A DNA stretch of 64,000 nt, taken from IMG/VR virus record IMGVR_UViG_2693429713_000009, one strand, 5' to 3'. A program made the position numbers and the translations under genes. The notes beneath the pieces were generated by a model. The model worked only from the letters and a program-made list of their open reading frames with translations. It did not search any database and was not told where the DNA came from. Origin of the DNA: a virus. Its lineage: Duplodnaviria; Heunggongvirae; Uroviricota; Caudoviricetes. Shown here one piece after another: positions 23,564-64,000 of this stretch; positions within the stretch are counted from its first letter, which is position 1, and every line of letters begins with the position of its first letter.

Positions 23564-23564
23564 A

Positions 23565-36470: not shown

Positions 36471-36478
36471 TAGTAGAA

Positions 36479-38957: not shown

Positions 38958-39693
38958 GTTTATCAGCCACCAGCGGCAATAAAGCCTTAGCCATTTCATG
39001 AACCAACATGGCATCAATAACGCCTAGCGTATGGCCTGGCTTAATCTTTAATGCGGCCTCAAGATAGCCTCTTTCCAGAGTGGTTTTTACGCTTTTCCTG
39101 GGCGCTTGTTGGGAACTATCCGGAAGAACCGGATGGTTCCCAGCCTCATAGGCTACCCGCAACCAGTGCATGAATGTTTCCGCAGACACACAGCCGCAGT
39201 CCACATCGATTTCCCCGCGTTGCTGCTCCAGCCATTGCTCAAAATCTAACTTGTAAGCCTTACTTTCAGGTTCATCACCATTGAACTCGACTTTCTGCGA
39301 CGCTATGAGAGCGGCTTCGTACTGTTCGCGAGTGACAACCGATGTAAACGCACTGCGATCAAGGTCACTGATATCGCAAATAATGCCATCAATGGAATAA
39401 TTCTTTGATGATTGGTAATTTTTATGGTGCGTACCAAAAAGAACCATAGCGCGACTACTACCTGGCATCGTAATGGATAGATGGCAAAAATCTTTTCCAT
39501 CAGGCCATCCACGCCCCTTAGATAATTCCTTCACTAACAAGTCAATCAGTGTCATAGCGTTACCATCCTTGCAAGGCGCTAAAGCTATTTTGGCAAGCTC
39601 CAATACTTCATCTGCTGCGTATCCAGCACTGTGACCATACATTTCGATGCTGGTGATAATCTCTGATATGCGTTTTTTAGTGATTCTTGTCAT
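38929..39693 (-). CDS. hypothetical protein
   Basis: About 254 aa. Confidence 0.4.
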   Translation of the reverse strand: MTRITKKRISEIITSIEMYGHSAGYAADEVLELAKIALAPCKDGNAMTLIDLLVKELSKGRGWPDGKDFCHLSITMPGSSRAMVLFGTHHKNYQSSKNYSIDGIICDISDLDRSAFTSVVTREQYEAALIASQKVEFNGDEPESKAYKLDFEQWLEQQRGEIDVDCGCVSAETFMHWLRVAYEAGNHPVLPDSSQQAPRKSVKTTLERGYLEAALKIKPGHTLGVIDAMLVHEMAKALLPLVADKHEAGHANES

Positions 39694-39899
39694 AGTTTTA
39701 TTTCCTTGCATGGTTCGCCTTTACGGCAAACAGCTACACGGTCATTTCTTACATTAACCACAGTCACCGTTCCGTCATCGCATTGAATAACGATGAAAGG
39801 GTGTTCATTCTCTTTTGTGCAATGTTGCTGTTCTCCAGCCATTGCAGCCGGAGGAGCAAATAGCGCCAGAACAAATGCCAGCCTTAAAAAATGCTTCAT
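39690..39899 (-). CDS. small exported protein
   Basis: 69 aa with signal peptide MKHFLRLAFVLALFAPPAAMA. Confidence 0.45.
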   Translation of the reverse strand: MKHFLRLAFVLALFAPPAAMAGEQQHCTKENEHPFIVIQCDDGTVTVVNVRNDRVAVCRKGEPCKEIKL

Positions 39900-39984
39900 T
39901 TGGCCTTATCCGTTATCAAAATTGGAATATCCGTTATCACGAGAGTGATATCCGTTATGAAGTGGGGAATAAGACCACTTATCA

Positions 39985-40158
39985 ATACCCTCCGCCTGAC
40001 TCAAAGTTGGCGATAAGCCAGGCTGCGAAAAGAGTAACCCCACTCCAAAAACCACACCCCACCGTACCCCATTTAACACCACCAGCTAATAAAACAAATA
40101 AACCGCAAAGGCATACAAACAAAAAAGTAATCCAAAATTTCTTTCTGTTTTTCATTAT
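39985..40158 (-). CDS. small membrane protein (not in ORF track)
   Basis: 57 aa MKNRKKFWITFLFVCLCGLFVLLAGGVKWG..., two hydrophobic segments, ATGA overlap with upstream gene. Confidence 0.4.
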
Positions 40159-40448
40159 GGTTGACTCCAGTTATCTTCAATAGCAATGCTCAATCTTTGT
40201 AACCATTCTGCTAATTTCAGCATTGCTTCTCTTTCGCTTAAACCACGCGGAAAATCATCAAGCGCTATTGTTGGCTTGAAGTTCCCAAAATTATCCATTT
40301 CAACGGTCAGATTTTGCTCCAGCACGGTATTTCTTACGCGACTATTGTGCCGAAGCAAATATACTGAACGTGATTTATTGGTTTTGTGGTCGAACGTATA
40401 TTCGGTAAGTATCATCTGACTTCCGCCATGATTATTACCGCGCCACAT
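40155..40448 (-). CDS. hypothetical protein
   Basis: 97 aa. Confidence 0.4.
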   Translation of the reverse strand: MWRGNNHGGSQMILTEYTFDHKTNKSRSVYLLRHNSRVRNTVLEQNLTVEMDNFGNFKPTIALDDFPRGLSEREAMLKLAEWLQRLSIAIEDNWSQP

Positions 40449-40471
40449 AATTACTCCGTGTTAATTGAAAT

Positions 40472-40774
40472 TTAGCTATTAATCTTCACTTTTATCGCGA
40501 ACACCTTTACCGGTTTATCACCGAAGTGTGGATGTGTGATTGTTTTTATTTCATATCCGTTATACGGGACGTCAATTCTGCGACTGAAGTCGTCGCGCTT
40601 CGGATATCCCTTTGTGATAATCAGGCGGTCATATTCCCGGAACATGATTCGCTTATTCCAGTAGTCATTACACAGGCGATACTCTTCCGTTTTATCTCCG
40701 CGAATCATGGCATCGAAGTATTCACCTTTGACGGCAAGTTGCAGGTTAGCCATTACCGCTCCTCCAGTCTCCAT
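40472..40774 (-). CDS. hypothetical protein
   Basis: About 95 aa; start probably internal Met. Confidence 0.4.
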   Translation of the reverse strand: METGGAVMANLQLAVKGEYFDAMIRGDKTEEYRLCNDYWNKRIMFREYDRLIITKGYPKRDDFSRRIDVPYNGYEIKTITHPHFGDKPVKVFAIKVKINS

Positions 40775-41013
40775 ACTGCCTGACCAATCCGGCTGGCATG
40801 TTTATCTTTAGATACTGTTCCGTCTTTAGCAATCTCCATAAGAATTTTGCGCAAATCTGCCGAACGCCATTCTTCATCAGGAAATTCCTTCTCCATTGCC
40901 AACCGCAGATTCCAGGTTGCTATCGTGAATGGATATTCCCCGCCGAGAGCTTTCTCTTGCAGGGCAGCACGGGAACGTATCACCTGCAATACCTTCTCTT
41001 TTACATCCATCAT
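40753..41013 (-). CDS. hypothetical protein
   Basis: 86 aa. Confidence 0.4.
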   Translation of the reverse strand: MMDVKEKVLQVIRSRAALQEKALGGEYPFTIATWNLRLAMEKEFPDEEWRSADLRKILMEIAKDGTVSKDKHASRIGQAVWRLEER

Positions 41014-41477
41014 TTTGTCTCCTGCGGCGGTTCTGGTAGCGGCATCCAGTGAGTTGCTTGCTCAATACCATTACCCGGCTTAATCGTTGCATCTCCGCGC
41101 CGAAAGGTGCTTCCGGTATAGCGTGCGGAGCATATTAGCGGTTCAACCAGAGAGCTATCGAAATTCACCGAAATAAGCACGTTCTGGCCCTTTTCAGGCA
41201 TTCGCTCACTACAGCTTATCCAACCATCCGGAGTTACCGAAACTGGCGACGCGGCATATAGTGGTTTAGGCGATATCTCCGCGCGTTTTGCGTATGCTTC
41301 AACTGTGTCAGGGTTAAACAGGATTATGTTTTCACCGCATTCCCACGCTATCGGTTCTGCTTCCAGCGAGGCTAACGCTATTTCATAAGCACGGCGCTCA
41401 ATATTGTCTCTCACGTCCAGGCTACCTATGCGCTCTTTGATTTCTTTAATCAGTTCTTTGTCGGTGAAAGTTGTCAT
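41010..41477 (-). CDS. hypothetical protein
   Basis: 155 aa. Confidence 0.4.
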   Translation of the reverse strand: MTTFTDKELIKEIKERIGSLDVRDNIERRAYEIALASLEAEPIAWECGENIILFNPDTVEAYAKRAEISPKPLYAASPVSVTPDGWISCSERMPEKGQNVLISVNFDSSLVEPLICSARYTGSTFRRGDATIKPGNGIEQATHWMPLPEPPQETK

Positions 41478-41480
41478 GTG

Positions 41481-41789
41481 TTAGTCCTCATCCACTTCAA
41501 CGCCATCTTTCAGCGTGATGCCGTGCCAATCATCAGCCCAACTGGTTAGCCCTGGCGCATCAATGCTAGGCATATAAACGCTTGCAGTGTGGTAGCCCTT
41601 ATCGTTATCAATGCTGGCAACGTGCTCGCCGTTGTATGCGCTCAGCGTGTCCAGGACGCTATAAAACTTTCCTCCGGCTGCCCTGAAATCCTTTACAGCC
41701 TTCACAAGGCGATTCCACGCTTTTTCCTGTTCTGGCGTCAGGTCGATTAATTCCTGCAAAGTTGCCATATCACTCTCCTTTGATGTCAA
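41481..41789 (-). CDS. hypothetical protein
   Basis: 102 aa. Confidence 0.4.
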   Translation of the reverse strand: MTSKESDMATLQELIDLTPEQEKAWNRLVKAVKDFRAAGGKFYSVLDTLSAYNGEHVASIDNDKGYHTASVYMPSIDAPGLTSWADDWHGITLKDGVEVDED

Positions 41790-42219
41790 TGTTTACAGCT
41801 TGGCAAGCCTCTTTGAGCACCCAGTCAACAGCGTCTTTCCATGCTCCGGTTTCGACTGGCGGATTTTCACGCTTAACCTGTTCATAGAAGCGCACTGCTT
41901 TAACCAGTCCTTCTGATGTCACCGGGACTGGCGGGGCAGTGAATAAGGCCTGAATCTCATAGCTCGGCCTGTCGTTGCAATCCTCTTTTGTCGGTACATA
42001 TTTCCAGTCACCAACCCACGAATCCCCCTGAGAGTCCGTAACACCTTTTTTCACGTAGCGATATCGCCACGCGACTGGCTCTGCTTCCAACGATGCCAGT
42101 GCGATACGAAACACATTGGCAAGCAGACTGCTTGAAGATTGGTTATCGTGCGCCGGGTCGCTCAGGAAACCAGTGATGAATGATTTAATTTCCGCGTTTT
42201 CTCTGGTAATAGTGGTCAT
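41770..42219 (-). CDS. hypothetical protein
   Basis: 149 aa. Confidence 0.4.
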   Translation of the reverse strand: MTTITRENAEIKSFITGFLSDPAHDNQSSSSLLANVFRIALASLEAEPVAWRYRYVKKGVTDSQGDSWVGDWKYVPTKEDCNDRPSYEIQALFTAPPVPVTSEGLVKAVRFYEQVKRENPPVETGAWKDAVDWVLKEACQAVNIDIKGE

Positions 42220-42476
42220 TTATTAATCCTCAAAACTTTATGCCCGGGCGCAAAAGCACGTGTTTTGTCTTTGCTTATTCGCCAGCCATCCTTGCGCGCC
42301 TCTTTTGCACAGCCAGCCCATGACGTACCGATATACTCACCGAAGTCTGGCGTTTGATATTTACCATTTGTACACTGGCGACAATCACAGTAGAGATGCA
42401 TGGTGTAACTTGCAGCGATAGCCACATCACTCTCCTTTAGTACGCAAGTGGTTTTTCCAGCGGTTTTGCGCCGCAC
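42216..42476 (-). CDS. hypothetical Cys-rich protein
   Basis: 86 aa with CDCRQC...C pattern. Confidence 0.35.
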   Translation of the reverse strand: MRRKTAGKTTCVLKESDVAIAASYTMHLYCDCRQCTNGKYQTPDFGEYIGTSWAGCAKEARKDGWRISKDKTRAFAPGHKVLRINK

Positions 42477-42619
42477 TGGGCTTTTTGCAACAACTGTGAC
42501 CCATCACCCCGCAACACCCCGCCAACCTCACTCGTCTGTTACTAATCCTCAACCAGCGCCAGATCCCAACACCGTTTCTGCGAGCTAACAGAATTTTTGC
42601 TTTACGGTTTTTCATCGCT

Positions 42620-43402
42620 TTACTCTTCTTCCTCACGCCCAAGATATGAAAGAGATGTGACTGCTGTTGCATGGAAACCACAAACCTTGCTAAGTGCGCT
42701 TTTAAACTCTTCAAGGTCGGATTGCGATTTGATTCTGAAAGGTGACTGCGCAATCCCGGACATGGTAATGCCACTAACATTGCTCACTGCGTTGTAGTGA
42801 TATACGTGCCTATTAGCTGATTGAGTCACGCGTTCCTGTTGGCTGTTTATATTGGCATCCTGCCCTGTGGTGGTCTTCTCCAACTCTTCGATACGTTCAG
42901 CCATCGCAGCACACTCTTCAAAATTGCTTAATGCTTTCCGCTCCCATTCAGCGCATTGTTTTTTCAGTTCTGCAATGCGCTTCTCTGCGGATTCCAGCGC
43001 CGCAACCAATTCGTCTACAGTTCCGGAAGCTTGCAGTGCGTAATCGGTAATAGCCATCTCATGATCAATTTCAGTACCGTTCTCATTCGTTGAGGTGATA
43101 GCAAAATAATCAGAGTCGATTTCGTTATCAGCTAAGTGGCGTAGCGTATCGGCAACAAGCCGGCCGTTTTCGATTAGCAGCTTCCCTACCGTTAGCGCAA
43201 TATCCTCGTTCTCCTGGTCACGGCGTTTGATGTATTGCTGGTTCCTTTCCCGTTCTTCCAGAAGCGCCAGCACAATATGTGGCGTTATCAAGGACTTAAA
43301 TTCGGCAACAGCTTGCTCGCCTCGCTTGTAATTCTTAATCCCACCTAAATTTTTCGCGTTCTGTGCCGCCTCACGCAGTGCCTGGTAATTAATTTCGCTC
43401 AC
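42620..43402 (-). CDS. Ea22-like coiled-coil protein
   Basis: 260 aa; N-terminus MSEINYQALREAA paralogous to next gene. Confidence 0.4.
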   Translation of the reverse strand: MSEINYQALREAAQNAKNLGGIKNYKRGEQAVAEFKSLITPHIVLALLEERERNQQYIKRRDQENEDIALTVGKLLIENGRLVADTLRHLADNEIDSDYFAITSTNENGTEIDHEMAITDYALQASGTVDELVAALESAEKRIAELKKQCAEWERKALSNFEECAAMAERIEELEKTTTGQDANINSQQERVTQSANRHVYHYNAVSNVSGITMSGIAQSPFRIKSQSDLEEFKSALSKVCGFHATAVTSLSYLGREEEE

Positions 43403-43847
43403 TGGTTGCCTCCTTATTAATCAGTTTATACAGGTGCACCACAGTCACAGAGAGTGCATCCATCGCTCGTTTATCCAGGCGCGGGGCCAGAGCAACCAGT
43501 TCATTTATTGCAATCTGAATACGCTGCTCCGCCGCCAGCGTCGCGCGATTGCTCTCCAGTTCTGCAATTCGGCACATGGCATCAATATTTGTGTCTTCCA
43601 GGCGCTTAATTTCGCCCAGGAGTGCCAGCGCAACTTTTGGTGGGATAGCCGCGATATAACGGGCATTAGCACCAGCATTCCTTTGTCCATCAATGCCAGG
43701 CCAGTCAATAAAGTATCCGCAATGCCTACCTTCAGACGTGCGCGCAGGATAAATGCCGTTATGACCCGGCAAAATATATGCTACCCATTCATCTTGCGTT
43801 GCCTGTTCCGCCGCCTCGCGCAGTTCTTGATAGTTAATTTTGCTCAC
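43389..43847 (-). CDS. Ea22-like protein (paralog)
   Basis: 152 aa; MSKINYQELREAA and LESNRATLAAEQ. Confidence 0.4.
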   Translation of the reverse strand: MSKINYQELREAAEQATQDEWVAYILPGHNGIYPARTSEGRHCGYFIDWPGIDGQRNAGANARYIAAIPPKVALALLGEIKRLEDTNIDAMCRIAELESNRATLAAEQRIQIAINELVALAPRLDKRAMDALSVTVVHLYKLINKEATSERN

Positions 43848-46734: not shown

Positions 46735-46979
46735 TGTGGTGGCTCCTGCTTTTCTGCCTTCAATACCATGCGAGAACCATCATCCAGCTCCCAATTAATT
46801 TCACCGCCTTCTGCCATGACCAGATGCCAGACGAGTTGAGCGGCCTCGTTGGTTACATCACGACCGCGATCATTGCCAACACGACGTTTTGTTCCATCCC
46901 CTAAGTCACGCATTTTTGCCAACACGATGGTTTTTGATAGCGGTGAAAAACCAAGCTGTAGTCGTGCGGTATTACTCAC
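46731..46979 (-). CDS. hypothetical protein
   Basis: 82 aa. Confidence 0.35.
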   Translation of the reverse strand: MSNTARLQLGFSPLSKTIVLAKMRDLGDGTKRRVGNDRGRDVTNEAAQLVWHLVMAEGGEINWELDDGSRMVLKAEKQEPPQ

Positions 46980-47773
46980 TGTTTACCTCCTTTTCGAAGC
47001 TGTTCGGCGATATCTTCGAGAACGCCATCAGAGAATGAACGGTCAAAATCGCCTTCCCGCGCATTAGCCATAAACTCAGTAGAGGTAAGAATCATCCGGG
47101 CAATATCCGCGGCGTTCTTCGCAGTATCATCAATAAAACCAGCTTCCCAAGCAGCCAGCATCCTGTTCGCCACAAAGTAAGCGCCCTCCTTGCGTGCTTC
47201 AGTCTTCACTTCATCCAGGAAAGTGTCGGTCGCAGGAGTGGTTTTTTGTGGTGATAGGGCGATACGAATTGTTTCAAGCGCTGGATCTATTTCCACTGTT
47301 GGCACCTTGATAAAACCAAGCTGCACGCCATTCATAATGAACGTGCGGCGATCCTCACATATCGCCTTCAGTCTCGCATTCTCCGCAGCCAGCGCCGCGC
47401 GATTACCCTCCAGCTCTGCAATGCGCTGTTTTGCGGTATCAAGTTCAATCGATAATTTTTCCAACTGCTCTTTATGCTTCTTGTATTCCTGATATGCGTG
47501 CCAGGACTGACCTTTGCGCACACTATCAGTAATATCAGTAATCTGTTCTGGTGTTAGCGTAGTCAGTGGCTGTGCTGGGAAAATCAGCACTTTCCCGGAA
47601 TCCCAATCAAAACCAGCGTGAATTGACTGAACCTCAACTGAGGGTGTTGAACCAATGCTGCCAGGCGAATGAACAACGATCGTTACATCCATATCGCGAC
47701 GATGGCTGTGGTTGTTGGACAAAATACGATTCACCAACTCAGAAAATTTGGAGAATTTCATGCGGAGCCTCAA
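46976..47773 (-). CDS. Ea22-like protein
   Basis: 265 aa; LEGNRAALAAENARLK and C-terminal block shared with 48177-48665. Confidence 0.4.
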   Translation of the reverse strand: MRLRMKFSKFSELVNRILSNNHSHRRDMDVTIVVHSPGSIGSTPSVEVQSIHAGFDWDSGKVLIFPAQPLTTLTPEQITDITDSVRKGQSWHAYQEYKKHKEQLEKLSIELDTAKQRIAELEGNRAALAAENARLKAICEDRRTFIMNGVQLGFIKVPTVEIDPALETIRIALSPQKTTPATDTFLDEVKTEARKEGAYFVANRMLAAWEAGFIDDTAKNAADIARMILTSTEFMANAREGDFDRSFSDGVLEDIAEQLRKGGKQ

Positions 47774-48171
47774 TATGCAAAATAGACCGTTGCCACGCCG
47801 TTATAGTGATCAAACGATACGGCGTTTACTTCATAGCTGGCAGGGAGCTTCGAGCCGAGAACATATCCGGGCCACGTTTTCCATGGAATTTCTCTACTCT
47901 CACTATCCCCATATACCGTACATCCAAGTGAACCTACAGCCTCGTCAGAACGTTTGCCGCATGTTATGAAACCTATATTTTTCTTGCCGGTCTTAATGGC
48001 GATTGGGTGAACACTGGCTGATGCATTGGCAGCACGCTGTGACTGTTGGTTTGCGATATTCGCAGAGTTCGCAGCAGCTACAGCAGCCGTGGTCGCGGCG
48101 GTAGATGCCACAATAACTGCTGAAGCCTGCGCCTGTTGGGTAATGGTCAGCAATGCCGCCACAAAAATCAT
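47770..48171 (-). CDS. exported protein with signal peptide
   Basis: MIFVAALLTITQQAQA signal-like N-terminus after trimming start. Confidence 0.4.
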   Translation of the reverse strand: MIFVAALLTITQQAQASAVIVASTAATTAAVAAANSANIANQQSQRAANASASVHPIAIKTGKKNIGFITCGKRSDEAVGSLGCTVYGDSESREIPWKTWPGYVLGSKLPASYEVNAVSFDHYNGVATVYFAY

Positions 48172-48176
48172 CCTCT

Positions 48177-48665
48177 TCACTTGCCAGCTCCTTTGCGAAT
48201 CTGTTCCGCCCATTCTTCAAGGGATTTCTCCGCATATTCACCAGACAGGCCATCAATCGGATGCGCTTCATTAGCCAACTCTTCTTTCGCTGACAAAATC
48301 ATGCGTGTAACGTCGAAAACTTCACGCAAAGACTTATTGATAAATCCGTGATTGAACGCAGCAGCAAGACGGCTGGCGGTATAGTTAATCCCCTCGTTGC
48401 GTGCTTCCGCACGTACTTCAGCCAGGAAAGCATCGGTGGCTGGAGTTTCGCTGTGGTGCAGGGCATCGTTGATAATCATTGCAGCAACTCCGGCCTGCCC
48501 TGCATCCGTGACCGACACATGCTCAAGAGTTACAGCCATTGCATGTTTCAGCCCAGCATTCTCCGCCGCTAGCGCAGCACACGCTTTCTCAAGTCGGGAA
48601 ATTTCCGTTACATACTCAGCGTTACGCTCTGCCAGTTGTGCGGGCGTTAAACCTTCAGACTTCAT
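48177..48665 (-). CDS. Ea22-like protein (paralog)
   Basis: 162 aa sharing ALAAENAGLK and C-terminal block with 46976-47773. Confidence 0.4.
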   Translation of the reverse strand: MKSEGLTPAQLAERNAEYVTEISRLEKACAALAAENAGLKHAMAVTLEHVSVTDAGQAGVAAMIINDALHHSETPATDAFLAEVRAEARNEGINYTASRLAAAFNHGFINKSLREVFDVTRMILSAKEELANEAHPIDGLSGEYAEKSLEEWAEQIRKGAGK

Positions 48666-50763: not shown

Positions 50764-50937
50764 TGACTGTTCGCTACCTCAACTTTCAAATCAAGAACAT
50801 TACTGGCGGTTGCTATGACTGGTTTGTCACTCTCGGAAAAGAAGTGATTACTGGTAAACTGGATGAAGTGAAAGCTAAAGCAATGGCCTACGCCTGCAAG
50901 CAAACCAGGAAGAAATCAACCAAGCATAAAGCCTGAA
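50764..50937 (+). CDS. small hypothetical protein (not in ORF track)
   Basis: 57 aa ORF with GGGGGTG upstream. Confidence 0.3.
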
Positions 50938-50998
50938 GGTGTAGGGTTACCCGGGGTCGTCGGGGCTTTAACTACTAAATAACCGGATTCTCCGCACG

Positions 50999-51310
50999 AT
51001 GAAGAAAATAGATTTCACTTACTCTGCTGCCACAATCCAGCGACGTTTCAGTCTCATAAGGGAAGTAGAACTATCAAAAAACTGTTATCAAATTCTACTG
51101 GATGAAGAGTTTTCGCTGATGATAATGGCAGAAAAATTGGCTATGCCGAATGACCGGCACAAAGTCATTGCCAGCCTGGATCTGGTGACAAATAGATACA
51201 GGGAAACAGAGGAACTACGTGAAGCGGGAGCAATGCGTGACCTGATGGATAATTCCGTTCCCCGTCGTTATCGTACGGGGAACGACATCTCCGTGATTAA
51301 AGGGGCTTAA
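50999..51310 (+). CDS. hypothetical protein
   Basis: 103 aa. Confidence 0.4.
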   Translation: MKKIDFTYSAATIQRRFSLIREVELSKNCYQILLDEEFSLMIMAEKLAMPNDRHKVIASLDLVTNRYRETEELREAGAMRDLMDNSVPRRYRTGNDISVIKGA

Positions 51311-51699
51311 AGCTCACCTGTGCGCTGTTTTTCAAGCACAGATTTAACATTTGGCGCTTTCCCTTTAAAAGAATGGAAAGTGCCACATTTTTCTGTTTTA
51401 ACCTCGCGCAGAGCTTCTCCATCGGCGTTCTGCCATTGATGGGATAATGTCATATCACCGCGAGAAGGAACATCCAGCGAGTACAGCGTATAAGTTCCCC
51501 CCATCTCCGCATACTCCTGGAACACATAGCTCATTACGTCAGATTCAGTTTTTCGGTGTGCGTTATCAACCTTATTCCCATTCAGAAATATGGCATCCGG
51601 ATAGATTTTTATATCAAACCGACCGCACTTAACTTGTAAATTTCCGGCGCTCGCGATCAAAGGGAAAGACGCCAGTAAAGCAATAGCCAATCTTTTCAA
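51307..51699 (-). CDS. exported protein
   Basis: 130 aa; signal peptide MKRLAIALLASFPLIASA. Confidence 0.5.
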   Translation of the reverse strand: MKRLAIALLASFPLIASAGNLQVKCGRFDIKIYPDAIFLNGNKVDNAHRKTESDVMSYVFQEYAEMGGTYTLYSLDVPSRGDMTLSHQWQNADGEALREVKTEKCGTFHSFKGKAPNVKSVLEKQRTGEL

Positions 51700-51719
51700 T
51701 TCTGCCTCCGCTGCGTAAC

Positions 51720-52343
51720 TTATTGCCCGTATTTTTTACACCATTGCTCTGCCATTTGTTTGGCTAAAGGCCCGGCTACTGCACTGTATTCTGCTGTTTT
51801 ACTTTGCACACATGAAGCAGATGGTTTTTTATTTCGCTGCTCGGTTAGTTTGCGCTCATAAGCCATCATGCTATCGAACCCGGCAATATCACTTTGGCGA
51901 AGCATTCCCTTTTTAACCAAAAATTGCTGCCCCTCGGGCACCAATGCAAGCATAAAAAGTGGTTGCAATAACTCACCTAATCCTTGCTGGCGATACACTT
52001 CGAATTGCTGCCATCCCTGACTTAATCTGGAAAGAGTATCTTTGGTTGAGTAACCTGTTTTTGTTATAGCTTTGTCCGTCAGATATGCTGTATATGCAAA
52101 AACGCAAAAGTCAGTTTTACCAATAAACTGAGTTCCAACAGGCCGTAATGGAATGCCCTCCCTCTTGCAAAAGTCCATAATGGCCGCTTGTGAATGATCC
52201 CCACCAGCGTTATTCATAACCTGCTGCCCTGCCCTGAATTGTGCAGGTAACGCAGTTGCATTGGCAGTATTAGCAGATACGCATCCCAACATAGCCGCGA
52301 GCGCGGCCCCTAAAACCCTTAACTTCACTACACCATCCTTCAT
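51720..52343 (-). CDS. putative lipoprotein
   Basis: 207 aa; signal peptide with lipobox-like MLGC. Confidence 0.5.
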   Translation of the reverse strand: MKDGVVKLRVLGAALAAMLGCVSANTANATALPAQFRAGQQVMNNAGGDHSQAAIMDFCKREGIPLRPVGTQFIGKTDFCVFAYTAYLTDKAITKTGYSTKDTLSRLSQGWQQFEVYRQQGLGELLQPLFMLALVPEGQQFLVKKGMLRQSDIAGFDSMMAYERKLTEQRNKKPSASCVQSKTAEYSAVAGPLAKQMAEQWCKKYGQ

Positions 52344-53923: not shown

Positions 53924-55112
53924 TTTCCTGAAAAACCAGGACGGGCGCTATATCACTGACGGCCTGTCCTCTAAGGACTTCACGCGTTTATTCGACCTTA
54001 TCAGGAAAGAACAAACCCGTAAGCGCCGACAAGCTCACCGGACGCTGACGCCAGGTAGACTGAGGAACAAATCCGCCGAAGATATTCTCAAGTTAGGGAA
54101 GAAAAAAGGCGGCACGTTCTTCACGCGAGACGACCTGAAAGGTTTCGAAAAGCTACGGAGTAAAACACGCGAAAAATATGACAGCAAGACGGCTGGCATC
54201 ACATACGCCCAGCTGGTGGCATCCAGCCAAGCAATCGATATTAAGCGTGCAAATAACGCCGTGGATGACGGATCTGGTATCAAAAGAGCTACACCCGTAT
54301 CTCTTCGCCACAACGTGATTAATATCCGCGTAGAAGCATCGGATATATCCGTCCACCAGCACCATATCGTCCGGATACGCTTTGAAGAATGGGATCAGAT
54401 GGTCGATGACATCGCAGAAGACGATAAATCAGCCCTGAAAATCACTAAATCACTGTGCGCCGGGCGGGTGTCTTTCGATTGTGACTGTGGTCGTCATCAA
54501 TACTGGTATCGTTACATCGCTACTGCGGGTAACTTTGCCCTGGCCCCGCCAAAAGAATACGCCTATCCAAAAGTTCGTAACCCTAAGCTACAAGGCGTCG
54601 CCTGTAAACACGTGATCCACTCAATGACGCGGTTACAGTCCGCTAGTTGGCAAATGAGTATTGCTCGTGCGTTACAAAAGGCCGCAACGCAAATTGCATT
54701 TGGTGACGATCGCCGCCGTACAACCAAACACTTCTCAAAAGAAGACGAGAGGGAGTTTAATCGCAATCGCAACAGTAAAACAAACGTTGACGTTGCCAAG
54801 CGCGAATGGAGGCTCTATCAGAAGCGCCAGGCCGCTTTAAGCACAAAACTGGCAAAGGACAACGGCAAAATTGACAAGCTACGTGACCAATTGACCAAAG
54901 CCAGAAAGTTGTCAGACGCACAGAAAAAACGGGCGGCAGCAAAAGAAGCGGCCTTGCAACGTGAGAAACAGAAAAACAAGGAGCTTCAGCAACGCCTTGC
55001 CGATCAGTTCGCACTGAAGAAGCAGGCGTTCATTGATGCGCTTGTCATGGCAGGAACGTCACCTGAGCAAGCTGAAAAAATGTTTATGGAGTATGTGAAG
55101 AAAGGTTCTTAA
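53916..55112 (+). CDS. SWIM zinc-finger protein with basic coiled-coil tail
   Basis: 398 aa; CDCGRH...CKH pattern; Lys/Arg-rich helical C-terminus. Confidence 0.45.
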   Translation: MPDFLKNQDGRYITDGLSSKDFTRLFDLIRKEQTRKRRQAHRTLTPGRLRNKSAEDILKLGKKKGGTFFTRDDLKGFEKLRSKTREKYDSKTAGITYAQLVASSQAIDIKRANNAVDDGSGIKRATPVSLRHNVINIRVEASDISVHQHHIVRIRFEEWDQMVDDIAEDDKSALKITKSLCAGRVSFDCDCGRHQYWYRYIATAGNFALAPPKEYAYPKVRNPKLQGVACKHVIHSMTRLQSASWQMSIARALQKAATQIAFGDDRRRTTKHFSKEDEREFNRNRNSKTNVDVAKREWRLYQKRQAALSTKLAKDNGKIDKLRDQLTKARKLSDAQKKRAAAKEAALQREKQKNKELQQRLADQFALKKQAFIDALVMAGTSPEQAEKMFMEYVKKGS

Positions 55113-55121
55113 TTTACAACA

Positions 55122-55146
55122 AAGGCGGTTATCCCGCCTTTTATAT
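55122..55146. terminator. hairpin terminator
   Basis: AAGGCGG-TTATC-CCGCCTT then TTTT. Confidence 0.5.
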
Positions 55147-55883
55147 TACTTGTCCTTTGATGTCGATTGAGACTCATATATTGTCTCCACGTCATCTATT
55201 AATTTATTAATACCCCACAATCCAGTGTCTTTATAAAAATCACTTTCTTCAATTGCTTTTAATAAATCGGCAAAATCTTCTTTGGTGGAAATCCTTTTAT
55301 CTTTTGCTTTATATATATCAACAATTACTTTTATACCGTGATACAGAGCCACTCTGGCACTCTCAATCTCTCTCTTCTTTTCTTCGATTGTATTCAGTAT
55401 TTTTTGTTGACCTTCTATTTGTTCCTCTAATTTTAAAAGCTCTTCCTCTTTTTTCTTTAGGTTTCTCAGTAACGCCTTTACTCTTGCTTTCTCTTCTGAG
55501 TCAAATTCATGGTCAATGTATCTTATTTGCGCATAATTTCTACCAGTTAGTTTTGATATACGCATAGTAATATAAGGCATTACTATGGACGCAATAGTGC
55601 CATATATAAACGGCATCACAAAGTGAGCTAAAAACGGAGATACAATGAAGGTTCCAAAATAAGGGATTTGATATTTATCCCCTACCCATACTATAGACAG
55701 TGTTGTGTATATATCATATTTAGATTTAAACAAAATTAGTATTTCTTGCCAATTAACGACAAAAAATGAAACCACCACATATGCAAATAATTTATTAAAT
55801 AATTTATCTTTTATGGCTTCATCCATTGTGCCCTTGATTGAGTCAATTGTAGATGTGTTTTCTGTTGATGAATTTTTGCTCAT
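55146..55883 (-). CDS. AT-rich membrane protein with cytoplasmic coiled coil
   Basis: About 245 aa; GC content by eye roughly one third, far below flanks; multiple TM segments then Lys/Glu-rich coiled coil. Confidence 0.5.
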   Translation of the reverse strand: MSKNSSTENTSTIDSIKGTMDEAIKDKLFNKLFAYVVVSFFVVNWQEILILFKSKYDIYTTLSIVWVGDKYQIPYFGTFIVSPFLAHFVMPFIYGTIASIVMPYITMRISKLTGRNYAQIRYIDHEFDSEEKARVKALLRNLKKKEEELLKLEEQIEGQQKILNTIEEKKREIESARVALYHGIKVIVDIYKAKDKRISTKEDFADLLKAIEESDFYKDTGLWGINKLIDDVETIYESQSTSKDK

Positions 55884-56756: not shown

Positions 56757-57548
56757 ATGGGCCGTTTTGACGAATGGTTTGCTGACGATGCAAACCTGGC
56801 AAGTAAGAAGTCAGAACATGACAGCACGCAGAGAGAAACGCCAGCGCCGATTGAAGCGAATGCAGGAGGCACGCCGGAACATGGCAATACCGGTTCGGAT
56901 TCATTCAGCATTCTGGAAGAGCAACCCGCCGCCAAAGCTGATAGCCATGATAATTTTGCTGATAGCAACGGTGGCCTTACTCCGGATGCTGGCGAATCAG
57001 ATATAGCCATACTTCCACCTTCCCTGGCTGGCAGAGAACCAACTCCACAGCTAAAAGCACGCTATAACGGGCATAAAGCCTTTAACGACCAAATCCGCGC
57101 AGACTGGATGCTGATTATTGAATCCAGCCCAGACGCGTTTCAGGCTCTCTTATATCGACCAGATGTTGGCACATATGGGGTAGTCAGCGACGAAACAGGA
57201 GAAGAGTCATTCACTGAACTGGATAACAACCAACGCGAACTGACTTACCAGGAACCTGAAATCGTTTATGTGCTGGATAACCCGGACGGGCGTGACTCTT
57301 TCCATGCGATTGACGCAGACGGTGAGCAGGATGGTTTAACCGATGATGTTCTGATTCTGCGTATTGCAGCAAATAACGTCCCCGTCGGATCAATTCTTGA
57401 ATGGAATGAAGAGATGGTAAACGGCGTAGCCCGCCGCTGGTGGTACGTGCACCGTATTTTTAGCTACGGCACACAGCATGTTGGTTCGCTTTACTACTGC
57501 ATACCTGCCAGAAATTTTGATACGACTCAAAACGGAGTGATCGAATGA
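56757..57548 (+). CDS. hypothetical protein, possible tail/baseplate module
   Basis: ATG at 56757 after GAGGATG; acidic N-terminal half. Confidence 0.4.
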   Translation: MGRFDEWFADDANLASKKSEHDSTQRETPAPIEANAGGTPEHGNTGSDSFSILEEQPAAKADSHDNFADSNGGLTPDAGESDIAILPPSLAGREPTPQLKARYNGHKAFNDQIRADWMLIIESSPDAFQALLYRPDVGTYGVVSDETGEESFTELDNNQRELTYQEPEIVYVLDNPDGRDSFHAIDADGEQDGLTDDVLILRIAANNVPVGSILEWNEEMVNGVARRWWYVHRIFSYGTQHVGSLYYCIPARNFDTTQNGVIE

Positions 57549-58312
57549 CTTCAAATAAAACCCTCCTGGCGCGAACAGGTGAATGGCAAACATCACGCAC
57601 AGGAAAATTCCAGACCACGGGCTTTGAAAACGTGGATAACGCGTTTGCTACGCTAATCAGCAATATCTTTTCTGATATCTTACTGGTGGCCCCCGCGCCG
57701 GAAGAAAAACGCTTTGCGTCATTCCTGAATCGTCCACCAGCAGAGCGTGTCTATGTGGCCCGTTTTGACAATGCGATCGAGTTTCTTAAAGCAGTTCGTC
57801 GCGCAAATGCCGGGCAAGGGAGAAAACCTGAAAACCAGAACATTAACCGGGATGCTCTCCCCCTAGTCAATATCTCACGCACTATGGATATCAATTATAT
57901 CAACGATGATCAGCAGATTGACCGCAAAAAAGTAGCCAGTTTTTGCGAACCAGATACCGGAATGCCTTTAGCAGAACTGGAATACACCCAGGCCATTCTG
58001 ACGTATGACGTTACGTTAATGGCAACTGATAAAGCGACCATGAGTCTGATGTGTAATTCGCTGGGCGCACGGCTTCGCCTGATGACAGGTACACAATTTG
58101 AAGCAACCACTCACCTTGTTCGTGTCCCGGTCCCGCTGATTTGCTCGATACAGGATGCCAAAGAAGTCGGCTTTACGGATGTTTCAGCACCAATTGGAGA
58201 AGAGCGTATTTATGCCACACAAGCGCCGATAAGTGTGATTGCAGACGTGATCACAGCATGGGAGTTGGACGCAAAACGTATTATTACCGAAACCTCGATA
58301 TCTATGGGGTGA
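57545..58312 (+). CDS. hypothetical protein, possible baseplate module
   Basis: 255 aa, overlapping starts. Confidence 0.4.
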   Translation: MTSNKTLLARTGEWQTSRTGKFQTTGFENVDNAFATLISNIFSDILLVAPAPEEKRFASFLNRPPAERVYVARFDNAIEFLKAVRRANAGQGRKPENQNINRDALPLVNISRTMDINYINDDQQIDRKKVASFCEPDTGMPLAELEYTQAILTYDVTLMATDKATMSLMCNSLGARLRLMTGTQFEATTHLVRVPVPLICSIQDAKEVGFTDVSAPIGEERIYATQAPISVIADVITAWELDAKRIITETSISMG

Positions 58313-58315
58313 TAA

Positions 58316-59296
58316 GTGGCCCAGGAGTTACAACAATATTTTCTACAGTCAGTGCTCATTAACGATAACAAAGTGCCACGAGACTGGATTTTTACCGCAG
58401 TATATGTAGAAAAAACCAGCCTCAAAGCCCCTTTGCTAAAACTGGAAATTCATGACGCTACCGGCACCGTAATTGATGACTGGAAAGCCAAATACGGTGC
58501 ATCGCTGGTGGCTGAAATGGGCGATCCAAACGGTAATGCAGGCACTTTTAAAACAGATTTCTTTGTTACGTCTGCAATGCTGGCTGGTGATGTTGTTACC
58601 GTTATTGCTGTCAGTGAAGACGTGCGTAGGTTTAAGATCCCCTCCCCGCGCACAAATTTACATACCAACAAAACACCAGACGCTATATTCAAGGCATATT
58701 CCGGCAAGCTTAAAATTACCAGCAGCGTGCTAAAACGCGCAGTTACATATCATCTGAATGCCGGTGACAAACCGTCAAAAATGCTTTCGGAGATAGCGCG
58801 AGACAAAGGTGCATTATGTTGGGTATGCCGGGGGGAATTTAACTTTTACACCCTGGCTGATCTGATGAAGCAAACGCCATCATTTACCTACGAGGGGAAT
58901 AACCCTAAAGCAGAATACACTTTGTCCAAAATGCGCCTACTCCAACAGGAACATGCGACAACAGCAAAGAATCAATATCGTTTTGTTGGGTATTCCATGA
59001 CCGATGGCTACGTCGAATATGGCGATAGCTCACTCCCAGTGCGTTATATATCCGACTCTGATATGGAAACTCTTCGCAATATGCAGCTGTCTCTCGTCCC
59101 CAAAATGGATATAGAAGTCGCAGGCAATCCTGATATAAAACCGGGGATGGTGATAGAGATTATCGTATACCGCTATGACCAGGAAAACCGCATTGATGAA
59201 TCAATGCCCCGTAAGCTAATAGTAAAAAATGTTGCGCACTTTGAAGACCGCGTAGGCTACACAACACGAATGATATTGGGAGTGCCGAACAAATGA
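58316..59296 (+). CDS. hypothetical protein, possible baseplate module
   Basis: 326 aa. Confidence 0.4.
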   Translation: MAQELQQYFLQSVLINDNKVPRDWIFTAVYVEKTSLKAPLLKLEIHDATGTVIDDWKAKYGASLVAEMGDPNGNAGTFKTDFFVTSAMLAGDVVTVIAVSEDVRRFKIPSPRTNLHTNKTPDAIFKAYSGKLKITSSVLKRAVTYHLNAGDKPSKMLSEIARDKGALCWVCRGEFNFYTLADLMKQTPSFTYEGNNPKAEYTLSKMRLLQQEHATTAKNQYRFVGYSMTDGYVEYGDSSLPVRYISDSDMETLRNMQLSLVPKMDIEVAGNPDIKPGMVIEIIVYRYDQENRIDESMPRKLIVKNVAHFEDRVGYTTRMILGVPNK

Positions 59297-59946
59297 AGCG
59301 TAGAGCGCAAATTGTTGGAACTGTGCACCCGGCAGGGCTTATGCGTGCTCAAGTCCGTGTTTTACCTGACTGGAATGGCGTTCCTGATGACGATCTACCC
59401 TGGGCGGAATACCTGTTACCCATCGGTAACGCTTTTGTACCCACAGTCAAAGGTGACCTGGTCTGGGTAGAGTTTCCTTATTTAGATGTTAACGGTCGAA
59501 TAGACACCAGACGCCCAATGATAGTTGGTGCCGCTCAGGATGCACCGGGAGGAATTCCAAACGTTGCACCAGAAGCATCTGGCAAAGGCAACGGCTGGAC
59601 GCCGCCGGAAGTAGATGGAGCACCTCCCCGCCCCCAAATCTCAGCAACGAAAGACTTCGTTATTCACCGCAACAATATTCTTGAAGTACGAACTGCTGGT
59701 GGCGGCTATGAAATTGCCAATACGGCAGCAGGCTCAAGGATTGGCATGAATGAGTCCGGGCAGATATATATCATTGGTCCGGCTGATGTAATCGTGAATG
59801 CAGGAGGGAGTGTTAACGTCAAATCAGCCAACAACATCAATGTTAAAGGGGAAAATATTGCTGTCACCGCTAACGGAGACATAGCTTTCAAGGCAGGAGG
59901 AACCTTTCAGGCCACTGCTAGCAACTTCGATTTCAAGAAAGGATAG
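59293..59946 (+). CDS. possible baseplate spike / gpV-like protein
   Basis: 217 aa; N-terminal OB-like region then Gly/Asn-rich repetitive beta-strand-like tail. Confidence 0.4.
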   Translation: MKRRAQIVGTVHPAGLMRAQVRVLPDWNGVPDDDLPWAEYLLPIGNAFVPTVKGDLVWVEFPYLDVNGRIDTRRPMIVGAAQDAPGGIPNVAPEASGKGNGWTPPEVDGAPPRPQISATKDFVIHRNNILEVRTAGGGYEIANTAAGSRIGMNESGQIYIIGPADVIVNAGGSVNVKSANNINVKGENIAVTANGDIAFKAGGTFQATASNFDFKKG

Positions 59947-59962
59947 AAAATGCACCCATTTA

Positions 59963-59992
59963 TGTTAGATAATTAACATGCATTTTCTAACA
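59963..59992. promoter_or_regulatory. paired operator-like motifs TGTTAGATAA-N10-TTTTCTAACA
   Basis: Inverted pair upstream of rdgC. Confidence 0.5.
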
Positions 59993-60005
59993 CAAATGGT
60001 GAGAC

Positions 60006-60911
60006 ATGAGATCAGTCGCTTTCAAAAATATCTTCATCTATCGTCTTTCACGCGAAGTTAGCTGGGATACTGCAGAAGTAAATGCAGCCCTTAGCAAGTT
60101 TGTGTTTACCCCATGCGGTTCTCAGGATATGGCTAAAGCTGGTTGGACCCCCGTTCTTGGCGACAACCTCACCCATGAATACCAGGGTTTTCTTCTGATA
60201 CAGCATAAACGAGAGGAAAAAATCCTACCCTCTCAAGTGCTCAAAGAAGAGTTACAGAAAAAAATCCTGACACTTGAAGAAGAGCAAGACAGAAAGCTGA
60301 AGAAGACTGAAAAAGATTCGCTGAAGGATGAAGTGCTTCACTCTCTGCTTCCTCGTGCTTTCACGAGAAAATCAGTCGCTAAAATCCTGATAGACCGAAG
60401 CAATCATCTGGTTTTTGTCGAGGCCAGCAGTGCTAAAAAAGCAGAGGATCAGCTGGCTTTGTTACGGAAATCGCTTGGCAGCTTGCCCGTTGTCCCCTTC
60501 TCTCCGAAAGACCCATTAGAACTGACCATCACTGGCTGGATTAAAAATGGCTTCCCGAACGGTTTCCGTGCCGGTGAGGAAGCGACCTTAAAAGCATTGC
60601 TTGATGATGGCGGCGCGGTCCGCTGCAAAAAAGTGGACCTGCTATCCGACGAGATCATGAGTCATATAGAAGCTGGTAAGGTTGCAACCACAGTTGCGGT
60701 TAACTGGCAAGACCGTGCATTTTTCAGACTGAATGACGATATGAGTATCAAGGCTTTGTCGTTCAGCGACGAATTGTACGACCAGAACGACGATATTGAT
60801 CGAGAGGATGTTGCGCAACGATTTGACGCTGACTTTATCCTGTTTACTGCTGAATTATCCGCGATGTTCACTTCGCTGGTGGAGGCCGTTGGTGGTGAAG
60901 CAGAACGTTAA
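60006..60911 (+). CDS. rdgC: recombination-associated protein RdgC
   Basis: 301 aa; [29 protein letters not shown]-terminal [17 protein letters not shown] match RdgC. Confidence 0.8.
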
Positions 60912-60924
60912 CAATAGACCTCTG

Positions 60925-61575
60925 ATGGTGAGTCTTTGTGATTTCACGGGGAAAATGGTCGCCCCCTGGCTGGAGCATGGTATAGATGCTGTTATCGTCG
61001 ATCCACAACACGCAGAGACCAGAGATGAGCTGATGCAATCAGGCGCAGTTCTGACACGTATCAGTGCGATTATCGATAGTGATGAAGTTTATGCTTTTCT
61101 CCGAAATAATTTACAACGTATTGTGTTTTTAGCTGGTTTTCCGCCGTGCACGGACCTTGCTGTTTCCGGTGCGCGCTGGTTTGCGCATAAGGCTGACAAA
61201 GATCCGTTTTTCCAGTTCAAAGCGATGCAGGTCGTCTGGCAGTGTTACGATATTGCAAAGATGATTGGTTGCCCGTACATGATTGAAAACCCGGTCAGCC
61301 AAATATCGACATTCTGGCGTAAACCTGATCACATCTTCCATCCTTACCACTTCACTGCATATTGCAAGGAAGACAATTACACCAAAAAAACATGCCTCTG
61401 GAGCGGGCAAGGCTTTGTCATGCCTGATGCCCTAATGGACGAATCATTAGGCAAGCCAGATAACAGAATCCATACCGCGCCACCTGGACCTGAAAGGGCT
61501 AATTTTCGAAGTGCTACTCCGCATGGATTCGCAAAGGCAGTTTTCGAAGCGAATAAGGGGGTGCTCTATGAGTAA
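60925..61575 (+). CDS. short DNA methyltransferase-like protein (C5-cytosine MTase motifs)
   Basis: About 216 aa; GFPPCTDLAVSG (PC motif) and MIENPV (ENV motif). Confidence 0.4.
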   Translation: MVSLCDFTGKMVAPWLEHGIDAVIVDPQHAETRDELMQSGAVLTRISAIIDSDEVYAFLRNNLQRIVFLAGFPPCTDLAVSGARWFAHKADKDPFFQFKAMQVVWQCYDIAKMIGCPYMIENPVSQISTFWRKPDHIFHPYHFTAYCKEDNYTKKTCLWSGQGFVMPDALMDESLGKPDNRIHTAPPGPERANFRSATPHGFAKAVFEANKGVLYE

Positions 61576-62473
61576 ATCTATAGCAAGCATAGCCATAGAA
61601 AAACAGGATACGATGGCTGAAATTAGCTATATGCGCACCATTCGGACTCAGGATGAATATGAGCGCCCGATCTTCAAATGGGTAGGCGGTAAATTCTCAG
61701 AGTTGCCTACAGTGCTTGAGCATCTACCACACGGCAAGCGGTTAATAGAACCATTCGTTGGTGGCGGTTCCGTATTTACAAATGCAGGATTTCGCCACAA
61801 CCTGCTTAATGATATTAACGGTGACCTGATTAACTTCTATCAGACATTGCAGCGAGAAGGACATTCGCTCGTCACGCTGTCATATAGTTTTTTCCAAAAT
61901 TACAACAACGCTGACGCTTACCTAGAAGTGCGTGAGGCATTTAACAGAGGAAAGTATGACCAGCTACATCATGCTGCCGCCTTTTTGTACCTTAATCGGC
62001 ACTGTTTTAATGGCGTAACGCGGTACAACCAAAATGGCGAGTTCAACGTGGGGTATGGCAAATACAAAGCGCCCTACTTCCCACATGCAGAGATGGAGGC
62101 ATTTTTGGCTGATGACGTACTCAAAAACACGTCCTTTGTATCAGGTGACTTTGCTGGCGTCATCGAGGCGGCTGGTGAAGGCGATGTGATTTTTTGCGAT
62201 CCGCCGTATGAACCGCTGCCGGATACAGAAGGGTTTACCAGTTATTCAGGAAATAGCTTCCGTTTCGACGAACAGAAACGGCTGGTATCTCTATTGGTGG
62301 AAGCCCACCAGCGCGGCGCTAAGGTAGTGATAACAAATAGTGGTGCGCCAAACATCCGTGAACTATATGAAGGAAACGGGTTTAAAGTACATCATATGGC
62401 AGCCAGACGGTCGGTGTCCTGCAAGGCGTCAACACGTGTAGTTGCTAACGATATAATTGCAATAATGAAGTAA
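61568..62473 (+). CDS. dam: DNA adenine methyltransferase (Dam family)
   Basis: About 301 aa; FKWVGGK, PFVGGGS and DPPY motifs. Confidence 0.8.
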   Translation: MSKSIASIAIEKQDTMAEISYMRTIRTQDEYERPIFKWVGGKFSELPTVLEHLPHGKRLIEPFVGGGSVFTNAGFRHNLLNDINGDLINFYQTLQREGHSLVTLSYSFFQNYNNADAYLEVREAFNRGKYDQLHHAAAFLYLNRHCFNGVTRYNQNGEFNVGYGKYKAPYFPHAEMEAFLADDVLKNTSFVSGDFAGVIEAAGEGDVIFCDPPYEPLPDTEGFTSYSGNSFRFDEQKRLVSLLVEAHQRGAKVVITNSGAPNIRELYEGNGFKVHHMAARRSVSCKASTRVVANDIIAIMK

Positions 62474-62475
62474 AA

Positions 62476-62504
62476 AACGCCGCAGTAGCGGCGTTTACTT
62501 TTTT
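62476..62504. terminator. bidirectional intrinsic terminator shared by dam and glnS
   Basis: AACGCCGC-AGTA-GCGGCGTT flanked by A-run and T-run. Confidence 0.7.
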
Positions 62505-62521
62505 ATGTGGCGAAATACCTA

Positions 62522-64000
62522 TTAACCTAACTTCGCCCAGGTATCACGCAGCCCAACGGTGCGGTTAAATACCGGTTTTTCCGCCGTAGAATGGCGGCTG
62601 TCGAGGCAGAAATAACCTTCACGCTCAAACTGGAATGCTTTACCCGCTACCGCTTCTTTCAGCGACGGTTCAGCAAAACCCTGTTTGATCACCAGCGATT
62701 CCGGGTTAATCACCGACAGGAAATCATCCGCAGCACCTGGGTTCGGCACGCTGAACAGACGATCGTACAGGCGGATTTCAACCGGCAGCGCATGTGCCGC
62801 GCTCACCCAGTGAATAACGCCTTTCACTTTACGACCATCTGCCGGATCTTTGCTTAAGGTGTCGGCGTCATAAGTACAGAAGATGGTGGTGATATTGCCT
62901 TCGGCATCTTTCTCCACGCGTTCAGCCTTAATGACGTAAGCATTACGCAGACGCACTTCTTTACCCAGCACCAGACGTTTGTACTGCTTGTTAGCTTCTT
63001 CGCGGAAATCGGCGCGGTCGATCCAAATCTCACCGCTAAACGGCACCTGACGGCTACCCATTTCCGGTTTGTTTGGATGGTTCGGCATGGTGACCATTTC
63101 GCCTTCGCCCTGGTAGTTTTCGATAACCAGTTTCACCGGATCGATAACCGCCATTGCGCGCGGCGCATTTTCGTTGAGATCTTCACGGATGCAGGATTCC
63201 AGCGACGCCATCTCAATGGTGTTGTCCTGCTTGGTCACGCCGATGCGTTTGCAGAACTCACGAATAGAAGCCGCAGTGTAACCACGACGACGCAGACCGG
63301 AAATGGTCGGCATACGCGGGTCATCCCAGCCTTCAACGTGCTTGTCGGTCACCAGCAGGTTCAGCTTACGCTTGGACATCACAGTGTATTCCAGATTCAG
63401 GCGCGAGAATTCGTACTGGCGCGGGTGAACAGGAATGGTGATGTTGTCCAGTACCCAGTCATACAGACGACGGTTGTCCTGGAACTCAAGCGTACACAGA
63501 GAGTGCGTAATACCTTCCAGCGCATCGCTGATGCAGTGGGTGAAGTCGTACATCGGGTAGATGCACCACTTATTGCCAGTCTGGTGGTGTTCAGCAAACT
63601 TAATGCGGTACAGCACCGGGTCGCGCATCACGATAAACGGCGAAACCATGTCGATTTTCGCACGCAGGCAGGCTTTACCTTCTTCAAAACCACCGGCACG
63701 CATTTTTTCGAACAGCGCCAGGTTCTCTTCAACGCTGCGGTCGCGGTACGGGCTGTTTTTACCCGGCTGCGTCAGGGTGCCGCGGTATTCGCGGATCTGT
63801 TCCGGCGTCAGTTCGTCAACATACGCCAGGCCTTTGTTGATCAGTTCAACAGCATAGGCATGGAGTTTGTCAAAATAATCGGAGGAGTAACGGATGTTGC
63901 CAGACCAGTGAAAACCTAACCATTCAACGTCGTTTTTAATCGACTCGACGTACTCGATATCTTCTTTTACCGGGTTAGTGTCGTCGAAACGCAGGTTGCA
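62522..64000 (-). CDS. glnS: glutaminyl-tRNA synthetase, 3' portion (gene continues beyond window)
   Basis: C-terminal 490+ aa ending [29 protein letters not shown], very close to enterobacterial GlnRS; host-like codon usage. Confidence 0.9.

Follow-up and report, generated by a model that had tools for sequence, protein, structure and literature searches.

The 64,000-nucleotide stretch of DNA analyzed here (the window) is very probably a 64-kb piece of a D6-like, P1-related plasmid prophage that exists as a free circular plasmid and carries a captured host glnS gene as cargo. Chromosomal homology is confined to ~1.75 kb (about 1,745 bp), with dam on one side and, in a close relative, partition genes on the other; since phage-plasmid DNA thus lies on both sides, we conclude that a host gene was captured by the replicon. 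The first-pass annotation had offered this explanation for a phage-like module abutting a core chromosomal gene, along with a second, in which a P1-like element was inserted into the chromosome by an unusual route. The second does not stand up to the collinearity of the window with phage D6 or to the presence of the same junction in D6 and in 111 plasmid records. The label "P1-like" was roughly right, although D6-like is more precise.

In a whole-window BLAST comparison, Escherichia phage D6 matched the window in 15 collinear blocks, all in one orientation, that covered 52.6 of the 64 kb at 86 to 98% identity. The alignment path begins with window position 1 at D6 position 32210 (the cin/cix region), passes through the D6 coordinate origin (rox) at window position ~31368, and ends at D6 position 60108, inside glnS. 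The nearest relative of the window is nevertheless a Salmonella Concord plasmid and not D6. This closest record, pGMI14-002_2, is a circular plasmid of 92,366 bp that was 99.9% identical over 98% of window positions 35000-59999 and showed 6 mismatches in the 6,602 bp of positions 57399-64000. All close relatives of the window were circular plasmid records of 87 to 97 kb; other named D6-like plasmid prophages are pYU39_89 and pYU07-18_89. The P1-type features found in the window were a C4 antisense RNA, Dre and its rox site, and homologues of DarB, pac, and C1, the last lying in a region collinear with D6_1. Three of these were located as follows.

9994-10200: C4 antisense RNA (Rfam, 69.6 bits) with its a1b1 target (55.9 bits), upstream of an anti-repressor-like open reading frame (ORF)
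31354-31385: rox site read from the sequence, a perfect inverted repeat with 14-bp arms and a 4-nt spacer, TAACTTTAAATAAT tggc ATTATTTAAAGTTA
31537-32565, plus strand: Dre (Cre-like) tyrosine recombinase (Pfam Phage_integrase, E=5e-17), homologue of D6_118, which is annotated as "similar to P1 cre"

Collinearity with D6, the match to pGMI14-002_2, the C4 RNA, and the rox site with its recombinase together place the window within a D6-like plasmid prophage. The genes repA (45.8 kb in D6) and parM, stbB, and parA-like (57 to 59 kb in D6) map outside the 64-kb window. In lifestyle and overall architecture, the plasmid prophages P1 and P7 are like the D6-like element, and the GenBank annotation of D6 (MF356679/NC_050154) refers throughout to P1 genes (c1, pacAB, darB, repL, cre, and phd/doc), with further P1 homologues in the c4 RNA, the cre/lox-type recombinase and its site, rdgC (hrdC), and dmt. 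They differ in that the recombination site is rox in the D6-like element and lox in P1, and in that the D6 adenine methylase is, by its annotation, similar only to the C-terminal half of P1 dmt. When a phage collection of 50,697 records was searched at megablast sensitivity with a 4-kb rdgC-dam-glnS query, D6 alone matched, and neither P1 nor P7 did. P1 is not known to carry glnS.

The Dre gene was the only integrase-family gene that Pfam searches found in the window. Its homologues in D6 and P1 are annotated as rox or lox recombinases and not as chromosomal integrases, and the rox site of the window falls at the coordinate origin of D6, where rox half-sites are annotated. Both Dre and rox sit at the place that corresponds to this origin, ~31 kb from the dam-glnS boundary. 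The earlier statement that no integrase or recombination-site repeat is visible at the boundary holds, with the correction that the window does contain this tyrosine recombinase and its site. Since D6-like prophages are extrachromosomal plasmids and are not integrated, neither an att site nor an integrase is to be expected beside glnS. Among E. coli plasmids, ~79 carried a D6-type Dre at an identity of at least 95%, as against 77 to 80 plasmid copies of glnS.

D6 and the window are identical in kind in gene order, convergent orientation, the 48-bp spacer, its hairpin, and the GlnS C terminus AKLG-stop. They differ in the glnS allele (D6 is ~2% off that of the window, chiefly in the 3′ third), in the tRNA set, and in several accessory segments. 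Window segments for which D6 gave no match of at least 300 bp were 35360-36515, 37618-38666, 39078-43815, 46737-48407, 50931-52285, and 55105-55710; these are accessory or mosaic and are present in the Salmonella Concord plasmid. Five tRNA genes lie between window positions 23315 and 25285 (Arg-TCT, Tyr-GTA, Thr-TGT, Ser-TGA, and Met-CAT), and the tRNAs annotated in D6 are Ser, Thr, and Asn. We regard the tRNA cassette as variable, because window positions 23394-24477 were unmatched in D6 and the tRNA sets differ.

The features at the junction are listed below; positions in the nearest relative are those of the piece compared.

60006-60911, plus strand: rdgC/hrdC homologue (Pfam RdgC, E=5e-102; D6_65), in a DNA-metabolism module upstream of the methylases
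60796-61575, plus strand: homologue of D6 orf64 ("putative DNA-cytosine methylase"), from the ORF list and the D6 annotation, overlapping the start of dam
61568-62473, plus strand: dam, N6-adenine DNA methyltransferase, ATG at 61568 and TAA at 62471-62473 (Pfam PF02086 MethyltransfD12, E=2e-56)
62474-62521: convergent intergenic spacer of 48 bp between dam and glnS, read directly from the sequence, equal to D6 61587-61634 and present in other D6-like plasmids
62475-62496: bidirectional terminator-like hairpin, AAACGCCGC-AGTA-GCGGCGTTT, with a 9-bp stem (6 GC pairs) and a 4-nt loop
62522-64000, minus strand: glnS, plasmid-type allele, stop codon at 62522-62524; the 3′ 1,479 nt of a 1,662-nt gene, or 493 codons with the stop counted
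62526-64000, minus strand: stretch homologous to chromosomal E. coli glnS, the captured host segment, which runs ~270 bp past the window
Nearest relative, 6824-6852: glnS promoter, ~250 bp past the window end

The longest ORF containing dam starts with a GTG at 61511. Read from the ATG at 61568, Dam was identical to D6_63 (gp63) at 300 of 301 residues and contained a DPPY motif; the gene is the homologue of D6 orf63 and is related to the C-terminal half of P1 dmt. A Pfam search with the orf64-like ORF at 60796-61575 returned no match. The methylase module has a mosaic makeup, with the orf64-like ORF followed by a 301-residue Dam in the window and in D6 and with a single Dam-family protein of 718 residues in pAR0119. 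Compared with piece 4018-6174 of pAR0119, window positions 60796-61643 included a segment, 60913-61643, without a counterpart in that plasmid.

The 48 bp that the first-pass annotation placed between dam and the 3′ end of glnS are exact, with dam ending at 62473 and the glnS stop codon starting at 62522. Its bidirectional terminator was also recovered, as a hairpin that a terminator scan detected on both strands and that has U-tracts on both sides. A T-run at 62499-62504 serves the plus strand and an A-run at 62472-62477 serves the minus strand, and the U-tract of the glnS strand overlaps the dam stop codon. The hairpin begins 1 nt past the stop codon of dam and leaves 25 nt to that of glnS. 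Its folding energy was −19.8 kcal/mol for each strand (z about −3.6), a stability reached by 0 of 200 shuffled sequences. By its structure and its placement between convergent genes, it fits a predicted bidirectional intrinsic (Rho-independent) terminator. An Rfam scan found no RNA family near the dam-glnS junction. When the junctions of the nearest relative were searched for repeats, only short, low-identity pairs at chance level were returned, and no insertion sequence end, att-like repeat, or target duplication was found flanking the captured piece. One pair from that search, a 13-nt near-repeat (ATTGCAATAATGA/ATTTCAATAATGA) at window positions 62456-62468 and positions 6886-6898 of the nearest-relative piece, is set 58 and 14 bp away from the breakpoints, outside the captured segment, and is probably due to chance.

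The junction that had appeared puzzling is an already known arrangement and is not new. In the D6 annotation, orf62 ("glutaminyl-tRNA synthetase, similar to E. coli GlnS") is convergent on the orf63 adenine methylase at a distance of 48 bp, and the 4-kb junction region of the window was 93.6% identical to that of D6. The 4-kb rdgC-methylase-glnS query was covered over at least 80% of its length in 71 plasmids from complete E. coli genomes, and glnS with both flanks was covered over at least 80% in 111 of the 117 matching PLSDB records, with Escherichia (90), Salmonella (16), and Shigella (2) among the genera of the covered records. That all D6-like genomes carry glnS was stated in a paper of 2019 (PMC6799933). 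The dam/terminator/glnS arrangement is thus already annotated in D6, published, and known for the whole D6-like family.

The frame of the plasmid glnS is open for 493 codons to the end of the window; the start of the gene (61 codons) and its promoter fall past position 64000. The translation matched Pfam families PF00749 (tRNA-synt_1c, E=6e-106) and, for the two anticodon-binding domains, PF03950 (5e-34) and PF20974 (7e-26), and the protein, whose N-terminal 61 residues are outside the window, was 99% identical to the E. coli-type glutaminyl-tRNA synthetase (GlnRS). The VMSKR motif is present in the window translation; in a full-length allele that is 99.7% identical, HIGH is at residue 41, a position past the window end, and VMSKR is at residue 268. 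Only three conservative substitutions and the C-terminal change are fixed in D6-type alleles, and the window adds a private change of A to V. The ratio of nonsynonymous to synonymous divergence (dN/dS) between plasmid and chromosomal glnS was 0.02 to 0.05 at a dS of 0.12 to 0.27, equal to the values among chromosomal orthologues.

A plasmid copy might be a nonfunctional hitchhiker in decay, a pseudogene in the making, given that each host retains its own glnS and that the FWSEC0003 record annotates the gene as frameshifted. We consider this very unlikely. The FWSEC0003 frameshift points to sequencing error, because many neighboring genes in that record are also annotated as frameshifted, and in the other six of the seven plasmid alleles read the ORF was intact. 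Furthermore, glnS was annotated as a coding sequence in 46 of the 48 full-length D6-like records among the matches listed, the catalytic motifs are intact, and the promoter is retained. The dN/dS was 0.02 to 0.05, and dS reached 0.24 between plasmid lineages. Two records were left out of the allele analysis, namely, FWSEC0003, with frameshifts annotated in many genes, and pSa1423-160k, which has 91% identity and no annotated glnS coding sequence and looks like a low-quality assembly. As judged from these codon and allele comparisons, plasmid glnS is intact and under strong purifying selection. No tRNA-Gln gene was found among the window tRNAs, so that the plasmid enzyme would charge host tRNA-Gln, and we infer that it is active as a second GlnRS. 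Chromosomal glnS was present in 5,425 of 5,426 E. coli genomes; since hosts kept their own copy, there is no sign at the level of gene presence that they depend on the plasmid gene. These 5,425 genomes held 5,428 chromosomal glnS places, such that a few chromosomes have an extra glnS-like copy, and these extra copies could include rare integrated phage-plasmids.

The plasmid alleles are mosaics. Across the 5′ third of the gene, they form a single plasmid-specific haplotype that lies ~4.3 to 5% from every E. coli chromosome (for the 5′ 600 bp, at most 95.7% identity to any complete E. coli chromosome), whereas the 3′ 600 bp reach 98.5 to 98.8% identity to E. coli chromosomes. In this 3′ third the plasmids resemble different E. 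coli haplotypes, with D6 and pYU07-18_89 being K-12-like and the window and pAR0119 being KEC180-like. Maximum chi-square tests gave P values of 0.001 to 0.018 for plasmid-plasmid and plasmid-chromosome pairs, compared with 0.08 to 0.40 for chromosome-chromosome controls. The differing 3′ haplotypes might be taken to mean that D6-like plasmids acquired glnS repeatedly and independently from their current hosts, and unrelated plasmids of Citrobacter and Enterobacter did take up glnS independently. We give this reading very little credence. Both junctions are common to all D6-like members examined, including a divergent D6-like plasmid of Escherichia fergusonii in which both junction sequences are recognizably kept, and the 5′ third is of one plasmid-specific type. 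Copies on Salmonella plasmids are of the E. coli and not the Salmonella type, with 98 to 99.7% identity to E. coli-borne copies and ~84 to 85% to Salmonella glnS. The pattern, including the chi-square results, fits one capture followed by patchy gene conversion, and the E. fergusonii plasmid, whose glnS is 5% different, points to a single old capture because it keeps both junction flanks. The simplest reading of the mosaic, which these comparisons suggest, would be gene conversion with the resident chromosomal glnS after that single capture.

The borders of the captured piece were compared with the chromosomal neighborhood of glnS. The window allele matched that of plasmid pAR0119 at 99.7% identity and K-12 glnS at 96.1%. 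With window positions 62300-64000 as the query, chromosomal matches began at query positions 227 to 233. Piece 6227-7971 of pAR0119 shared 1,745 bp of homology (95.9%) with the K-12 nagE-glnS-chiP region, and the homology stopped at the gene borders. Its start lies ~87 bp before the ATG, ~10 nt ahead of the −35 hexamer, and it ends within the last few codons or the stop codon region, which places the 3′ breakpoint to within ~25 nt. At the C terminus, plasmids have AKLG-stop and chromosomes have AKVGE-stop. The native chromosomal glnS terminator hairpin is absent from the plasmid, and the hairpin of the dam/glnS spacer stands in its place; upstream of the homology is the plasmids' own sequence, including a hairpin after orf61. 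The window ends 183 nt before the glnS start, and the promoter and far flank were inferred from relatives that are 99.7 to 99.9% identical. In pGMI14-002_2, the sequence directly beyond glnS holds orf61 and genes for a ParA-like ATPase, StbB, and ParM.

These borders leave little room for the alternative in which a P1/D6-like prophage is integrated beside a resident chromosomal glnS by an integrase-independent route. It has in its favor that glnS is a core chromosomal gene, that the plasmid copy is 96 to 97% identical to the chromosomal one, that 1.7 kb of homology could in principle support RecA-mediated cointegration, and that the window ends inside glnS, with the far flank outside its view. 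However, chromosomal homology stops at the stop codon, the native terminator is missing, and no chromosomal homology was found outside the 1.75-kb glnS unit. The plasmid-specific haplotype extends to position 64000 and includes the AKLG-stop terminus, at 99.7% identity to plasmid alleles, and no chromosome exceeded 97.1% overall. Furthermore, a relative showing 6 mismatches over 6.6 kb carries plasmid partition genes on the far side of glnS, and the junction is common to 111 circular plasmids and the D6 virion genome. We consider such an integration extremely improbable. That the junction is an assembly chimera of a phage-plasmid contig and a chromosomal glnS contig, for which nothing speaks except that a housekeeping gene looks odd a priori beside phage genes, has virtually no chance of being correct, because the junction recurs, base for base, in more than 100 independently sequenced records (two of D6, 71 of complete E. 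coli plasmids, and 111 of PLSDB plasmids that span several genera and countries) and because the glnS allele of the window is unlike every chromosomal allele.

Capture of a host gene by the replicon can be outlined as follows. A minimal host transcription unit of ~1.75 kb, consisting of the glnS promoter, 5′ untranslated region, and ORF, was probably taken up once, from an Escherichia-type chromosome, by a forerunner of the D6-like elements. The captured piece most likely arose by illegitimate recombination. Escherichia ruysiae, the sole non-coli Escherichia compared in the donor search, was no closer to plasmid glnS. The unit came to lie between the DNA-methylase genes of the phage and the partition genes of the plasmid, with loss of the native glnS terminator, such that glnS and the convergent dam gene would now share one hairpin as their terminator. 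After capture, homologous recombination may have swapped patches of sequence between this gene and the resident chromosomal copy.

The captured unit kept the promoter TTGTCA-17-GATCAT, which has a GATC in its −10 hexamer and from which plasmid glnS would be transcribed. Chromosomal glnS is repressed by Dam and derepressed in dam mutants (Plumbridge and Soll 1987, as cited and reconfirmed in PMC11741368). The captured unit, with its promoter of the Dam-sensitive type, has a phage dam gene next door. The retained Dam-sensitive promoter and the mosaicism of the alleles are small additions of the present work. Lysogen fitness, translation capacity during lytic growth, and plasmid retention of the kind proposed for cysS of plasmid pBT1 are all possible benefits of a second glnS. 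We put forward, as a tentative and rather doubtful proposal, that glnS is a working module in which the Dam-sensitive promoter would be derepressed on unmethylated or hemimethylated phage DNA, freshly injected or replicating, and which would either raise the charging of tRNA-Gln during phage development or make the host dependent on the plasmid (as proposed for pBT1 cysS). Through repeated exchange of patches with the resident glnS, such a phage-plasmid would also move variants of an essential core gene from strain to strain and from genus to genus.

Other plasmids offer comparisons. PMC6799933 raises the idea that glnS aids host fitness or plasmid maintenance and, citing Canals et al. (2019), compares it with cysS on pBT1 of Salmonella Typhimurium ST313 strain D23580, a proposed maintenance device whose chromosomal counterpart is downregulated. 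The two cases are alike in that the gene of an essential class I aminoacyl-tRNA synthetase was duplicated onto a plasmid and differ in the synthetase and the replicon type. Independent captures of full-length glnS were found on Citrobacter cronae plasmid p.S175-1.4 and Enterobacter ludwigii CM-TZ4 plasmid unnamed2, with homology confined to about the same gene-sized segment (query positions 133-1859). Their alleles are ~86% identical to the D6 type and resemble Citrobacter and Enterobacter genes, and their replicons are unrelated to the D6-like one. On p.S175-1.4, a conjugative (MPF_I) plasmid, glnS and cysS lie close together near a HigB toxin gene (piece 6985-10809). On the E. ludwigii plasmid, the flanks of glnS hold a dinQ type I toxin gene and two genes for site-specific integrases (piece 6728-11942).

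A housekeeping gene that abuts phage genes with no att site or integrase therefore represents, in this case, a plasmid prophage with a captured host gene and not a new route of integration. The retained Dam-repressed promoter and the mosaic exchange with chromosomal alleles leave the classification unchanged and make the question of why the gene is kept slightly more tractable. A whole phage-plasmid lineage, with members in E. coli, Shigella, and Salmonella, retains an additional glutaminyl-tRNA synthetase gene that is under strong purifying selection, for reasons that the literature has already begun to ask about.
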